This document shows positions 25,951 to 47,589 of a stretch of 64,000 nt of DNA, piece after piece. The stretch comes from Octopus vulgaris (lineage: Eukaryota): the NCBI GenBank assembly GCA_951406725.2, contig OX597814.1, positions 199,578,001-199,642,000 of the forward strand. Direction: 5' to 3'. A model generated the notes under the pieces. That model was not told where the DNA came from, searched no databases, and was given only the letters and a program-made list of their open reading frames with translations. The first letter of the stretch is position 1, and each line of letters opens with the position of its first letter. Made by a program: the position numbers and the translations under genes.

Positions 25951-26024
25951 GCTTTTGTGTGTTTAGTGATATGTGGATATATATATATATATATATATAT
26001 ATGCTTTTGTGTGTTTAGTGATAT

Positions 26025-26075
<51 letters not shown>

Positions 26076-26245
26076 TTTTGTGTGTTTAGTGATATGTGGA
26101 TATATATATATATATATATATGCTTTTGTGTGTTTAGTGATATGTGGATATATATATATATATATATATATGCTTTTGTGTGTTTAGTGATATGTGGATA
26201 TATATATATATATATATATATGCTTTTGTGTGTTTAGTGATATGT

Positions 26246-26287
<42 letters not shown>

Positions 26288-26416
26288 TTTTGTGTGTTTA
26301 GTGATATGTGGATATATATATATATATATATATATGCTTTTGTGTGTTTAGTGATATGTGGATATATATATATATATATATATATATGCTTTTGTGTGTT
26401 TAGTGATATGTGGATA
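25951..26416. repeat. Minisatellite: 9 units of gcttttgtgtgtttagtgatatgtgga + (TA)n
   Basis: Direct count. Confidence 0.95.
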
Positions 26417-27174
26417 TACGTGTATATATGCATAGGCATACGTACATATATGCATATATGAGAGTATCTATATGTATGTCATTTTATGTACGATTATATT
26501 TACATATGTAATATGGGTGTGTCTGCAAGTGTGTGACGTGTTTACGTGCGAATTTGCGTTCGTCGCGCTTGTCTATTCTTCTATCTCTCTTCCTTGTTTC
26601 AATACAAACATTACAGCCAACATATTTTGATAACTGCATTGTAGAAACGGTTTGTTTCTGTCTGTTTTTTTTTTCCCCCAGTAAAATATATATATATTCC
26701 TTCGTGCGTATATATTCATATAACCGTAACGAGCACAGAAAACAATTTTTGTGTATGAAATAGCATCGTTTCTTTTCTTTTAGCTTCAAGAGAGAGAGAG
26801 AGTCTCATATCTCACTAATAGCAGGTTGATATATCGTCTTATTGTGCATTCACACCTTCGCCTGTATTAAGTTACACAATAATGATATCGGTGCGGATAG
26901 GATAATAATCATTCAGTTGATAACAGCTGACAACTGGAATGTCCCGCAGCGTAAAGCTACCGCCAACATGATGTAGATACATATATTTATACGATTTCAG
27001 ATATGTATAAAAAAAATATATACGTCCTATAACCGCTCGCACATTTCCTTAATACGATATAATCTCTGCCTTGGATAATGTGCATACATTGTTGTGTGTA
27101 TATATACTATCTGACATCTCTGCTTACGTACGAGTTCGCGTATAATAAGCCCACAACACACACGCAAATATATT

Positions 27175-27348
27175 TTGTATGTGTGTGTACGTGTGCAGTT
27201 CTGTGAGCGCGCGCCGTGTCTGTGTGTGTGTGTTTGTGTGTCTGTGTGTGTATATGTGTGTGTATATATGTGTGTGTATATATGTGTATGTATATATGTG
27301 TGTGTATATATATGTGTGTGTATATATGTGTGTGTGTATATGTGTGTG

Positions 27349-27381
<33 letters not shown>

Positions 27382-27838
27382 ATATATGTGTGTGTGTGCA
27401 TATATGTGTGTGTGTGTGTATACATATATGTGTGTATATATATATGTGTGTGTGTATATATGTGTGTATATATATATGTGAGTGTATATATATATGTGTG
27501 TGTATATATATGTGTGTGTATATATATATATGTGTGTGTATATATATGTGTGTATGTGTGTGTATATATATGTGTGTGTGTGTGTATATATGTGTGTGTG
27601 TGTATATATATATGTGTGTGTGTATATATATATATGTGTGTGTGTGTGTGTATATATGTGTGTGTGTGTGTATATATATATATATGTGTGTGTGTGTGTG
27701 CGTGTGTATGTATATGTGTGTGTGCGTGTGAGTGTATATATCTGTGCGAATATGTGTGTGCGTGTGTGTATTTATCGCCAGCTAAATGAGATTATCTTAA
27801 GGAACTAGTTTGTGTGTGTGTGTGTATGTGTGTGTGTA
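27175..27838. repeat. Compound (TG)n/(TA)n microsatellite
   Basis: Alternating purine-pyrimidine tract. Confidence 0.95.
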
Positions 27839-28713
27839 TTACTTGCTCCAGTCATTAGACTTCGGCCTTCCTGGGGCACCACCTTGAATTTTTTATCGAA
27901 CGACTCAATTCCAGGACTTTATGTTTTTTTAAAGCCTACTACTTATATATATACGTATAGACAGGTATTTAATAACTATGCACCATGAATAAGTGTTTTA
28001 AAATGTTCTGAAGTAAGCGAAGGCAGTTTTTTTCTGGCTGAAGAAAATGTATTGTTTTAAAGTTTAAATTGTTAATAATTAGATTGAAAAACTCAGACAC
28101 GTCAGTTTTTAATTAGAATTTCCTCCCACCCTTAAATAAAATGTCTTTTATTTTATTCATTCTTTCTTTAATGTTTTAGAAAAAAACATCTGTTCTGTAG
28201 AAAATAAAGTAAGAAGTCAACATAAACAAAAACGTACCTAGATAAAGAATAAAAAGAACAAAAGTCGATTCTTGTAAAGGAATTATGAAAAAACACAGGT
28301 AAAAACGGAACTCGGTCATCTTGGAATAAATTCCTTGTGTGTGTGTTTTGTTAATTGAATCAACGCGCCACTGCTATCTTTATTTACGAATGTATAAATT
28401 TTTCACTTTCGAAGTTGGTTAAGAAACGATGGATTCTGCACAGAACCCTTACTGCTACATGTAAATATTACTATCACTACTATTACTACTACTACAACAA
28501 CTACTACTACTACTATTACTACTACTACTACTACAACTAACTGTTGGTGCTGCACGGAAAGTACCTTAGCCGTCGTCGTCGTCGTCGCTGTGACTATTCG
28601 AGTTAAGCGAGCTTGTCATTAGTAGTTTCTGCATCTTGCTGTGGTCGCTATCCTAGTTTATGTAGTGTAGTTGGTCGTGCTCCGACCAGGCTCGGGACTA
28701 AAACTAAAACAAT

Positions 28714-28816
28714 ATGGATGAATGTAACACCCCCTCGCATGTCGTTCACGAACATAGACATATAAAAAAGTGTAAAAGTGCCACGTTTACCTTGGATGGC
28801 ACTTCCTATACTATCG
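28714..28816 (+). CDS. PDE1C: First coding exon of a Ca2+/calmodulin-dependent cyclic nucleotide phosphodiesterase 1 (PDE1C-like long isoform)
   Basis: aatATGG start; MDECNTPSHVVHEHRHIKKCKSATFTLDGTSYTI resembles the recalled vertebrate PDE1C N-terminus KKCRSATFSIDGYSFTI; ends at consensus donor G|GTAAGT (phase 1); homology from memory, not searched. Confidence 0.75.
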
Positions 28817-28877
28817 GTAAGTTTCGACTCGTACATTATGATTATTATTATTATTATCATCATCATCATCATTGTTA

Positions 28878-29665
28878 TTTTCCGCTGTGGTCAACTTTGC
28901 CTTTCAGCCTTCCGGGGTCGATAAAATAAAGTACCAGTTATATAACTGGGGTCGATATAATCGACTTCACCATCCCCTCAAAACTGCTGGCTTTGTGCTA
29001 AAATTATTATTATTATTATTATTTCTTATTTTTCGCTGTGGTCAACTTTGCCTTTCAGCCTTCCGGGGTCGATAAAATAAAGTACCAGTTATATAACTGG
29101 GGTCGATATAATCGACTTCACCATCCCCTCAAAACTGCTGGCTTTGTGCTAAAATTATTATTATTATTATTATTTCTTATTTTTCGCTGTGGTCAACTTT
29201 GCCTTTCAGCCTTCCGGGGTCGATAAAATAAAGTACCAGTTATATAACTGGGATCGATATAACCGACTTTACCATCCCCTCAAAACTGCTGGCCTCGGGC
29301 TAAAATTATTATTATTATTAACATCATTATTATTATTATTATTATTTCTTATTTTTCGCTGTGGTCAACTTTGCCTTTCAGCCTTCCGGGGTCGATAAAA
29401 TAAAGTACCAGTTATATAACTGGGGTCGATATAACCGACTTTACCATCCCCTCAAAACTGCTGGCCTTGTGCTAAAATTATTATTATTATTATCATCATT
29501 ATTATTATTATTATTATTTCTTATTTTTCGCTGTGGTCAACTTTGCCTTTCAGCCTTCTGGGGGTCGATAAAATAAAGTACCAGTTAAATAACTGGGGTC
29601 GATATAACCGACTTTACCATCCCCTCAAAACTGCTGGCCTCGTGCTAAAATTATTATTATTGTTG

Positions 29666-29705
<40 letters not shown>

Positions 29706-29710
29706 CATTA
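28878..29710 (+). repeat. Tandem array of 5 headless SINE family B bodies (~151-172 bp) with (ATT)n spacers
   Basis: Units start near 28878, 29029, 29180, 29352, 29524; each has gtcaactttgcctttcagccttc..gggtcgataaaataaagtaccag. Confidence 0.9.
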
Positions 29711-30568
29711 AGTGTCAAGTTTTTTAATTAAGTAAATACAGATTAATCGTGTGTTTTGGGGGCATTTCTCGTGCATTGTTGCATTTGTGTTCTTTTTTCT
29801 TTTTCTCTCTCTAAAACCAGCTAAGAAAACCAAATTACTTTTTCTTTCTCTTCTTATCGTATTTTCTAAGCTTGGCCGAGAGATTATACGTCAAGCCCGT
29901 ATGAATGTAAAAGTAACATGCGTGTGTGTTAAATAGTAACCAAGCTAAAACTAAGCGGGCAAGGGAGACTTTTTTACAAATATTTTCTCGCACCGATGCT
30001 CCCGTTCAGGCTTATCTATTTGTTTGACATTTAATCATTTTACTATTGTCTTGTTATTTTACATGTTTACACCGAATACTATTTCTACGGTTTGTAGTGT
30101 TATGAATTCTTAGGTATCTACCGAGAAGGCATGAATCATGTTCATAATACTTCTCTGCGCCCTAGTTTACTTGTTTGTTGTTTTAATTCAAACACTTAGT
30201 TTTCGGTTCGAAGTAGTTTGTTTACTATATAAGCCTATTAGGCGGGGGAAAGAGATAAACTTTACAACAGTCCACCGAGGCTGATTCTGACTTCTGTCTC
30301 CCGTACCAGTAATATACTGTGTCGATCCAATCAACAACTAGCTTCTCTACTAGTTTGTGGTCTTGTGGTAAACTTTAAACTGTTTATTGTGTACAAGTAA
30401 ACCGCCGTTTGTTTGTCACGCGGTTTCAATCCACGCTCGGAGCAGTTTTACTTAAGTTACAACCGGACAAATTCTTGTGGGTATAAGTGGAAGGACCTTA
30501 GGGGTGTAAGTTAGAATGGCTACAGCTTAGCATTATAAAAGCATTTCGAAGGGAGCTTCGGCTAATTA

Positions 30569-30600
<32 letters not shown>

Positions 30601-30935
30601 TAATTTCGACTTGTATGCGGCCAATTTTGAAGCGAGCCGTTCTACTAATCTAACTAAATGGTAAAAGTCAAACGCAGAATTTGAACTCGTACTGCAGAAA
30701 CAACTAAGTTTTCAAAAGCAGCTTCATTGTCTTGCTAGCATTAGTACCAGGTACAATGTATACTAATCACAACCACTAGGATTGTTACTTTAGCTTCTTT
30801 TTTTTTCTAAGATGCAACACAAAGCTCGTCTCCAGATTTCAGTTGACAATGCGGACACTCGGAGTTTGATATCATTTTTTAAGGTGGTTGCGTTTCTGAA
30901 CAACAACAACAACAACTATAATAATAATAATAATA

Positions 30936-30976
<41 letters not shown>

Positions 30977-31627
30977 CAGAAAGTCTTAGTGATAATAACT
31001 CAGAAATATAAAACTGTGATGGTCAGACTATTAAAAAAAAAATTAGCCATGAAGAATTTTTTTATTTTCTAAATGTCAATGGATACATCGCTTTATTGTA
31101 AAAGTGAAGTGTAGCCATATATCAGTTACCTGATCATTATTTTGTTGCATAAGGAATTACTTTAGCTGATGATACGTTGCGTGTCAACCCTTCCCTGTAA
31201 GAAAGTGGGTCCTGCAACGGAGTCTTTTATATCCATGATAAATCAATCCCATCGATTGTTTATAGAAATATGAAAGTGGGCGTGCCTTGTCGCAAGTGTC
31301 CGTTTTCGCTCAGGAAGGAGATGGGTCGGACGGCTCAGATACTTTTATGTATTCAGTCCTCACAGTGTTCGAGTTCACGTCTCAGGCTAATAAAAAGCAA
31401 GTTCCCGTTACCTACATTCTTTGGCTAAAATTGCAGGGCTGACCAAGAAGTTGTCTTTTATTTATATTTCTGTGCGACAACGCATCCTTGTCTCTATAAC
31501 ACACACATACTGTTAATACTTCAATAATGATTGTTTTTTTCATTCAGTTTTCCGATGCTACAGTATTAGAAGTCTTAGCCATTTAGTCTTTAGCCATTTA
31601 GGACATGATTGTATATATATATATATA

Positions 31628-45877: not shown

Positions 45878-46725
45878 GCCAACAGCGTAAGTCTAAATGC
45901 TTTACAGTATTTGCTCCACACCTCTGAACTCAAAACCCGCTGAGATCACCTTTGCTTTTCATTTCTTTCGGGGCGATGGATTGGCTGAACCCTTAGAGTG
46001 TCTAATGAGTTGCCATGCTGCAGAATTTGTTCCAGCTTTTTGCATTCTCTGGTCTTGTTTTGTAGACCTAATTCCCCACCCAGTTTCACACAATCAACTG
46101 GTCCTTTTGTACTTTTTACAGAGTTCACTCTATTGCAAATATTAGGATAAAGTCTTTGATTTCGTGATAGTTGTCACCCTTCCTCCATTCCAAAGGTTTG
46201 AAAAGATAGTCGTGGTCGATGCTCTTCTCTCTCAGACAAAACTAAGAATAACCCTTCTGTCTCAGCTAACGAGGAAACCGTCACATGGCACATCAAAATA
46301 ATAAAATTAGTAGCCAAATTTTCCTCAAGCACCTTACAGACTTAAGTATGTCTATACGTATGTGGCCAAACAAGACCTCTAATTGTAAGCCGGTCATGTT
46401 AAATATAGCCGCCAAATTTCCCTCAAATCACATCCATGTATCCATGTTACTTTAATACAGTATCTGAGCATCTTCGGATGAACCAGACATGGCTATCACT
46501 CGCAAATGAGTACAGTAATCCCTCGCCATATCGCGGTTCACATATCACGGTTTATTATTCCAGCTTACGTCGATTCCTCTGAGGTGTTATTTAGCATTTA
46601 TAATAAAATAAATATATACACATTATAAAAATAATTTTAAAATATATAGTTCTATATTTAAGAGATGAGGAATTATGTACATTATTTACATTTGACGGAT
46701 ATTTGTCCTCATCTTGTTTGTTGTT

Positions 46726-46771
46726 AACACAACGTTTCGGCTGATATACCCTCCAGCCTTCATCAGGTTCT
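46726..46771 (-). ncRNA. Minimal type I hammerhead motif
   Basis: GAAC-CUGAUGA-A-GGCUG(GAGGGUAUAU)CAGCC-GAAAC-GUU-GUGUU; palindromic AACGUU helix III; one base missing from helix I 5' strand relative to the other copy. Confidence 0.72.
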
Positions 46772-46847
46772 TGGGGAAATTTCGAACCTGGCTTCTCATT
46801 CCTAAGGTATTTTTCGATGTTGTTGTTGTTGTTATTATTATCATTAA

Positions 46848-46892
<45 letters not shown>

Positions 46893-47028
46893 CATCATTA
46901 TTATTATTATTATTATTCAGGTAACTGCCTGGAATCGAACTCGGAATCTTGGGGTTAGTAGCCTGCGCTCTTAACCACTACGCCATATGCCCGTGGGCAT
47001 ATGGCGTAGTGGTTCGAAATTTCCCCAA

Positions 47029-47074
47029 GACACCTGATGAAGGCTGGAGGGTATATCAGCTGAAAAGTTATGTT
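47029..47074 (+). ncRNA. Mutated inverted copy of the hammerhead motif
   Basis: GACAC-CUGAUGA-A-GGCUG..CAGCU-GAAAA-GUU-AUGUU; helix III palindrome and first helix I pair broken. Confidence 0.55.
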
Positions 47075-47112
47075 AACAACAAACAAGATGAGGACTAATA
47101 TCCGTCGAATGT

Positions 47113-47154
<42 letters not shown>

Positions 47155-47589
47155 GTACAGTACTGTTTCCACTTCGCGGAGTTTCACCTATCGCGGGACG
47201 ATTACTGTATAACGTGGTAGCAAGTACCATTCTTTCCCTTGGTCGCTATTTACTCTGAGAGTGGCTGTGTGTGTCTATATCTCTGTTAACGCTGTTTGAA
47301 AAACTTGGCTGTGCTTATGCAACCAGAAGACTTCTTTAATCAATACTAAATCCCAAAACAAAATATGTACAGAGGTGGATATAACTAAAACTTACAATGC
47401 ATATATATATATATTGTAATTTTTGCGGTCATTTGAAGAAATTTAATTAAATCGGCTCCCTGTAGTTACATTAGATCTATCTAGCTTTATTTTTCTGCAC
47501 TGCTAAGTTCTGAAGAGGTGGAAAAAATTTTACACTGTTCGCCAAGCGGCGAGACACAAACACGCATAACAATACATTATATGTATGCA

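Follow-up and report, generated by a model that had tools for sequence, protein, structure and literature searches.

The question raised by this locus is whether a tRNA-like head joined to a hammerhead-bearing tail makes up an unusual kind of SINE or belongs to something larger. The locus lies on the - strand of the window, by which we mean the whole 64,000-nt stretch of Octopus vulgaris DNA that was analysed (contig OX597814.1, positions 199,578,001 to 199,642,000). An initial annotation had read positions 46648..47116 as one element, a SINE head fused to a borrowed Penelope-like element (PLE) tail and moved by a PLE reverse transcriptase (RT). Our analysis leads to a different reading. With a probability of roughly 0.65, we regard the unit as the pseudo-LTR (pLTR) of a Poseidon-type Penelope element with a tRNA-derived head that likely acts as an internal Pol III promoter.

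The motifs on which the initial annotation was built (A box, B box, AAT/AAC run and hammerhead letters) are all found on the - strand where it had placed them. The tRNA-derived head occupies 46916..46992 on this strand, with +1 at 46992, which in the long element described below lies 29 nt past the stop codon. Within it are an A box (46975..46985) and a B box (46931..46942) in which T54-T55-C56, A58 and C61 match tRNA numbering. A run of (AAT)n/(AAC)n of variable length (46816..46917, with (AAT)n at 46917-46832) joins the head to the tail, the 171-nt 3′ part of the pLTR (46645..46815), which ends near 46645. The last approximately 27–30 nt of the tail (46645..46673), present in the main copy only, correspond to the Penelope "extension" (cf. 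PMC8557442; PMC11167929). The body had been said to lack a T4 run, and the first T4 on the - strand indeed falls 3 nt past the element end, in the flank.

Judged by its boxes and its likeness to tRNA-Arg, the head is tRNA-derived. Among 27 distinct host tRNAs from 30 loci, tRNA-Arg was the closest in alignment (44–46 of 75 columns, z 8.4–8.8). Rfam, at gathering and E-value thresholds, matched neither a tRNA nor a hammerhead, and ARAGORN made no tRNA call. Because a relaxed ARAGORN search called only Ser, in 4–7 of 74 heads and only at the 80–85% threshold, the isotype rests on the alignment to the 27 tRNAs, and the assignment to tRNA-Arg is tentative. No cloverleaf appears for the head in the predicted RNA fold.

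The minimal type I hammerhead (46726..46771, - strand) sits inside the coding frame and consists of CUGAUGA at 46766-46760, helix II at 46758-46754/46743-46739 and GAAACGUU at 46738-46731, with cleavage predicted to fall between 46731 and 46730. In agreement with the minimal descriptor of PMC4209133, it has a bulged A before helix II, G10.1-C11.1 and a palindromic 15.2-16.2, and helix III in the main copy is the palindrome AACGTT only. The description as a minimal type I hammerhead holds for the letters, which are of the minimal Penelope type, but not for the ribozyme of the main copy, whose helix I is broken through a 1-nt loss. Since the core of the inverted copy is mutated, there is no intact ribozyme in either window copy. 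Across the genome, the core is intact in at least 1,117 copies (exact 41-nt word), which may be capable of self-cleavage as dimers or with help from protein, and the one variant that is common in the core affects N7, a free position.

The proposed span of 46648..47116 contains the main copy, but is not one element: a second copy, inverted and with an internal deletion, occupies 46995-47116 on the + strand. In it, head positions +1..+20 are joined via a shared GGTT to tail position 28. This partner stops before the extension. The two copies meet in a fold-back centred on 46985..47002, where the head start is joined to its own reverse complement across a 2-nt loop (46993-46994) with perfect 20-nt arms (46973-46992 / 46995-47014), and this exact junction occurs 394 times in the genome. 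An inverted piece lies upstream in 64 of 98 copies, and in 47 of 58 inverted pairs the two 3′ ends differ, one being long and the other short. An inverted, 5′-truncated partner with a 30–40 nt extension at one end is a known Penelope signature (PMC8557442), and the family displays it. A short, 5′-truncated copy next to a deleted partner in opposite orientation, as seen in the window, is the common arrangement of Penelope insertions.

The surroundings are TA-rich, as had been remarked, with (TA)16 at the target site (47117..47148). For the one insertion examined, empty copies of the host repeat read ATATA at the insertion site, so that there was no long target duplication. The host of the insertion is a short non-coding repeat (window 46511-47209) with TA-flanked inverted ends beginning TACAGTAATC; it is present without the insertion at two other loci (L162 and L156), and we take it to be probably a Tc1/mariner-type MITE. 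Elsewhere in the window, at 28875-29710, tandem arrays of 151-nt and 172-nt units (3 copies each, 96–97% alike, with (ATT)n between them) resemble the repeated 3′ ends of another retroposon; a pattern search found no hammerhead in them.

The join of head and tail is fixed throughout a large family. Exact words of 25 nt matched the genome 2,521 times for the head and 7,901 times for the tail, so the family has at least 7,901 copies, and the exact 41-nt hammerhead word matched 1,117 times; reversed control words of head, hammerhead and tail gave 0 genome matches. Scaling by the share of exact matches in loci picked by another part (9/41 for heads, 10/39 and 45/148 for tails) gives rough genome totals of 11,000 heads and 26,000–31,000 tails. 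In two sets of other loci selected by the head, a same-strand tail lies behind it in 26 of 29 and 26 of 30 cases. The co-occurrence called for by the initial annotation is therefore seen in thousands of copies, and chance nesting of head and tail is ruled out by the linked loci. Near-identical insertions with their flanks occur at different places on contig C1 (L240, L241, L242 and L251, L253) and are probably segmental duplications. The (AAT)n run often carries a 600–700 nt insertion of another repeat, common to several loci (e.g., L164 2855-3450, L221 2930-3480), and is thus a landing site for other elements.

The long element that carries this unit codes for protein. An endonuclease-like C-terminus is encoded just upstream of the head in 3 of the first 59 other loci. 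Where loci were picked by the ORF end, the head lies directly behind the endonuclease end in 29 of 30, and where they were picked by the ORF start, the tail lies directly ahead in 27 of 30. Walking upstream along the longest copies leads to the RT and then to the tail again, directly before the ORF. Since the head stands behind the ORF end and the tail before the ORF start, head-(AAT)n-tail is the pLTR of a protein-coding Penelope element rather than a separate SINE. There is no SINE with a borrowed tail because the protein-coding element itself ends in the same head-(AAT)n-tail, and the proposed fusion fails on two counts: the head is also in the long element (29/30), and the tail runs in frame into the ORF. 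The search for an autonomous PLE sharing the tail did uncover a Penelope ORF behind it, but this partner carries the head too. The Penelope RT, whose ORF is joined to both tail and head, is still the likely mover, as first proposed, and the 3′ end is ORF-start sequence, in keeping with the reported lack of a LINE-like tail.

The majority frame over 138 fragments has 835 codons from the tail ATG and stops 29 nt before head +1. Its first ~52 codons are the tail, and the hammerhead spans codons 10–24 of this RT plus GIY-YIG frame. In the window tail, the Penelope ORF starts with the ATG at 46799, its frame shifted by a 1-nt loss near 46769; at L414, the frame is open from the ATG in the tail into the ORF. 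Translated, the window tail matches a full-length relative in another organism at 18 of 43 N-terminal positions (pairwise E 2e-5). The frame contains an RT domain (PF00078, E 5e-10) with YVDD at 536 and GIY-YIG-type motifs at 726–803, its C-terminal part aligns to an Anolis relative (pairwise E 1e-19), and the best named relative is an Anolis protein cluster (40% over 97% of the query). Pfam gave no GIY-YIG match in the two fragments tested; relatives do carry PF01541. The element has a single ORF in which RT is followed by a C-terminal GIY-YIG, and a pLTR formed by a partial tandem with a hammerhead, as in Penelope/Poseidon. The CX2-5CxxC finger is absent from the RT-EN linker, by eye, in translated copies L062, L083 and L084, against Neptune/Nematis. 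On these features of ORF, pLTR, inverted pair and linker, we take the element to be a Poseidon-type Penelope. A sequence search matched no solved Penelope structure. Copies diverge from the majority by 7–9% and none of 93 candidates scored was an intact full-length copy; hence the family looks old. Two further observations were made: directly behind one long copy, at L091 6900-8400, lies an unrelated RT of LINE type with 499 aa of open frame, and 32 contigs filed as bacterial/archaeal genome assemblies (L368-L399) encode relatives of the Penelope protein and are most likely host animal DNA in bins.

Judged by the variants they share, long and short copies belong to a single lineage. Two subfamilies can be told apart by three linked variants, and both include ORF-linked as well as head-start copies (16 and 55 in one, 7 and 8 in the other, out of 35 and 94), where only the presence of both kinds counts since the ratios are biased by the picking of loci. 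Among variants with a frequency of at least 12%, none is confined to the short copies. Compared with a SINE, the short copies do carry an A/B-box head of tRNA origin at their 5′ end. They do not form their own non-autonomous lineage sharing only a 3′ tail with its partner, and neither a LINE-type 3′ end nor a target-site duplication was found, the latter at the one insertion site examined.

Where copies begin was analysed in 98 of the first 100 hammerhead-word matches (the window's own place and L071 were left out). Their 5′ ends fall in the tail (10), in the AAT run (31), inside the head (20), at -8..+7 (31) and deeper in the ORF (6); L161 and L214 are two more copies with ORF sequence past a gap. 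Thus, of 37 copies reaching the head start, 31 end within a 16-nt window in which 2.9 would be expected at the in-head rate. Genome-wide, the exact ORF-side 10 nt are kept in only 243 of 2,521 exact head starts. Head-picked loci are ORF-linked in 6 of 30 cases, and three of these 6 look like segmental duplicates; about 80% of heads have no ORF upstream. The 30 loci picked by the 3′ tail, which overlap in part with other locus sets, include 10 that start at the head, 5 inside it and 0 in the ORF. As a point against the preferred reading, only 1 of 6 ORF-start loci reaching a head begins at the head start (L407). At L403 and L420, a common junction ~230 nt after the tail end takes the 5′ part of the ORF straight to the head start, possibly marking an internally deleted non-autonomous subfamily.

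The 94 head-start copies comprise 32 fold-backs, 8 that start inside +1..+8 and 54 that are neither. That 32 of 94 are fold-backs means that the palindrome itself shapes ends. In 50 of the 54 non-fold-back copies, native letters stop at -7 or nearer, and A at -2 is kept in 66 of 95 short copies. From this pattern we infer that the RNA begins near -6, which is 13 nt ahead of the A box, and that joining is ragged. Such a start would also account for the fold-back, for which the cDNA has to terminate immediately beyond the palindrome.

Copies show no tendency to end at the hammerhead cut. In bins around it, 5′ ends are flat (8 at 86–90 versus 7, 10, 6, 7 and 7 downstream), and among 30 copies selected through the 3′ half of the tail, none begins there; only these bins and the 30 unbiased loci count here, the larger copy pool being enriched for ribozyme-spanning copies. 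Self-cleavage, as proposed in the initial annotation, accordingly does not set the ends of copies. Units bounded by the cut in head-to-tail arrays are ruled out as well, as there is no end pile-up and inverted pairs dominate. In two copies (L408, L412), ORF sequence is joined to the base after the predicted cut; both start near the cut, and microhomology could explain them.

A terminator-free sense strand is a suggestive sign of Pol III transcription. The majority sense strand (2,633 nt from 138 fragments) has no T4 and no broken T run, with 30 A4 runs, and against synonymous shuffles the lack of T4 has P values of 0.029 and 0.009, a modest significance. This test sets a majority sequence against single copies, and the frame of the element is T-poor (22%). 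As controls we used 51 open RT frames of at least 350 aa from 112 loci of relatives. Their observed/expected T-run ratio is 1.08, none has P ≤ 0.02 on a wider count, and all 15 frames of at least 600 aa have 2–18 T4 runs; 4 of the 51 (351–479 aa) are also without T4, and two unrelated RT frames of the octopus genome have only 1–2. The A/B pair is found in 95 of 131 own copies and, by the same rule, in 0 of 15 relatives between the stop and the hammerhead-like core.

Three other explanations of these ends have to be weighed. The head could be an inert tRNA/SINE relic in the 3′ UTR of a Penelope element transcribed by Pol II or read-through, with the pile-up due to fold-back abort at TGCCC-AC-GGGCA. 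This is the rival that we take most seriously, although we consider it unlikely. The 394 exact junctions and the 32 fold-backs among 94 head-start copies speak for it, as does the fact that the palindrome is predicted to form a hairpin in the RNA, ranking third in stability among 11 such hairpins. In Drosophila, the promoter of Penelope is LINE-like and internal and lies in the pLTR, at the place taken by the head in the octopus element (PMC2377424), and a LINE with a tRNA-like segment, RTE-1_DAn, is on record (PMC5786205). However, 54 of the 94 copies share the same stop without fold-back, mostly upstream of +1 and not on the 3′ side of the stem. The ten other hairpins with stems of at least 5 bp lie in the ORF, where the end rate is ~28 times lower, although some are stronger than or similar to the palindrome. 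An inert head would also leave the missing T runs unexplained.

The short copies could instead be an independent, Pol III-transcribed and self-cleaving SINE lineage with its own masters, mobilised in trans by a Penelope element with which it has just the tail in common. The large share of heads without an ORF upstream (about 80%) fits this, short copies could re-amplify since each keeps promoter and recognition region, and Schistosoma has Pol III plus hammerhead retroposons (PMC6765202). We nevertheless find it improbable: the long element carries the head too, no short-only variant reaches 12%, both subfamilies hold both kinds of copy, native letters are kept upstream of +1 (A at -2) and the cut does not mark ends. 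Least probable of all, and hardly credible to us, is a short RNA cut from a longer transcript, either by an RNase P-like activity at the head or by the hammerhead followed by circularisation as in retrozymes. The tRNA-like head, the conserved hammerhead core with its common variant at the free N7 and the joints in L408 and L412 would suit it. Yet these joints also show microhomology, the 5′-end bins at the cut are flat with 0 of 30 tail-picked copies starting there, copies are dispersed and inverted and not in head-to-tail arrays, and the anole enzyme uses uncut RNA (PMC11167929). At the head, no cloverleaf is predicted and ends lie upstream of +1, not at it, and the native letters retained there reject an RNase P-type cut at +1.

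In the preferred reading, that of a Penelope pLTR with its own Pol III promoter, the unit order, which the copies show directly, is ORF (835 codons), stop, 29 nt, head, (AAT)n and tail, with tail and hammerhead forming the start of the next ORF copy. Initiation by Pol III at the head is likely from the boxes and the copy ends. It would begin ~2–7 nt before the head (G at -6 fits best) on any copy with intact boxes, and the RNA would run through the tail to give SINE-like short RNAs. The element's own protein would bind the 5′ region of the ORF and nick TA-rich DNA, and reverse transcription would begin internally at two sites ~27 nt apart on uncut RNA; in vitro, the anole element has internal starts at two sites and uncut RNA is the template (PMC11167929). 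The cDNA would run off at the RNA 5′ end to leave head-start copies, and would often fold back on the TGCCC-AC-GGGCA palindrome or join a second cDNA, giving a back-to-back pair. The long element would thereby shed SINE-like short copies unaided.

From an upstream repeat, Pol III might conceivably also read the whole terminator-free frame, and full-length RNA is perhaps made by Pol III as well. Two points count against such a reading: the start codon of the ORF precedes the hammerhead, and RNA made by Pol III, being uncapped, serves poorly as mRNA. An autonomous Pol III-transcribed Penelope that captured a tRNA promoter, purged terminators from its 2.5-kb frame and became its own SINE factory is thus a tentative proposal that we rate as possible, and on balance doubtful. 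In RNA-Seq, two runs mapped to a near-full copy give equal depth on both strands with an unstranded look, and the depth follows copy abundance; these runs show no start pile-up at the head or the cut, which fits passenger transcription. Among RNA contigs from four runs, those of two organisms included the end of the ORF as well as head and tail, and those of two other organisms had none of these, the latter being no proof of absence.

Several known systems share parts of this structure. Among Penelope/Poseidon-clade PLEs, PAc of Anolis carolinensis likewise has one ORF with RT and C-terminal GIY-YIG, a hammerhead overlapping the ORF start, copies that end 100–160 nt inside the ORF at two sites, an inverted 5′-truncated partner, AT-rich targets and ends that do not use the hammerhead cut (PMC11167929; PMC8557442). 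Unlike its Penelope/Poseidon relatives, the octopus element holds a tRNA-derived A/B-box head, together with (AAT)n, in the interval from stop to hammerhead, and has a sharp 5′-end pile-up at the head and a terminator-free sense strand. It resembles SM-alpha/Sj-alpha of Schistosoma in that a short abundant repeat carries what looks like a Pol III promoter ahead of a type I hammerhead; those repeats are described as non-coding, often tandem and freed from multimers by cleavage (PMC6765202), whereas the octopus unit is a terminal repeat plus coding start with a minimal hammerhead, found as dispersed inverted pairs. Cassandra, Helenus and Ajax ("TRIMp3") also have a small-RNA-derived Pol III promoter in a terminal repeat, but are non-autonomous LTR elements of <1.3 kb whose autonomous partners are argued to need Pol II (PMC10886601). 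Here the promoter sequence sits in the repeat of a protein-coding Penelope-type element, outside the TRIMp3 definition of true LTRs with PBS and PPT and no coding capacity. Animal non-LTR retrozymes are similarly short hammerhead sequences from PLE pLTRs; they are defined as head-to-tail arrays, and the main text describing them has no tRNA or promoter (bioRxiv 10.64898/2026.07.22.740005), in contrast to the inverted pairs with a tRNA head in octopus. As in classical tRNA-derived SINEs, an A/B-box head stands at the 5′ end of most copies reaching the head and there is no internal T4; unlike in those SINEs, the 3′ end is the ORF start of the partner and not a LINE 3′ UTR, the partner carries the head, and there is neither a poly(A)/repeat tail at the 3′ end nor a long target duplication.

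Octopus families of tRNA-derived SINEs were reportedly described by Ohshima and Okada in 1994. Octopus SINEs and Penelope families are named in the accessible text of PMC4758252 and PMC13282606, without a tRNA-headed pLTR structure. In our literature search, which covered the main text of freely accessible papers, no Penelope pLTR with a tRNA/Pol III head was described. The suggestion that the combination had not been formally described therefore needs to be narrowed: a short retroposon with Pol III promoter and hammerhead is known in Schistosoma (PMC6765202), and it is the tRNA-headed pLTR that was not found. According to the prevailing view, transcription of protein-coding retrotransposons relies on Pol II or host read-through, and Pol III promoters occur only in short non-coding elements (PMC10886601). 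If our reading is true, a tRNA promoter ahead of a terminator-free frame would be an exception to this rule. It would also provide a simple route for the birth of SINEs, in which a long element sheds a short one with no fusion needed, and, should the tentative proposal of an autonomous Pol III-transcribed Penelope hold, a direct snapshot of a SINE born from inside its own partner. The system offers a test of where Penelope RNA starts and of the role of the hammerhead. In practical terms, repeat annotations of this genome likely divide more than ten thousand copies between the labels "SINE" and "Penelope".
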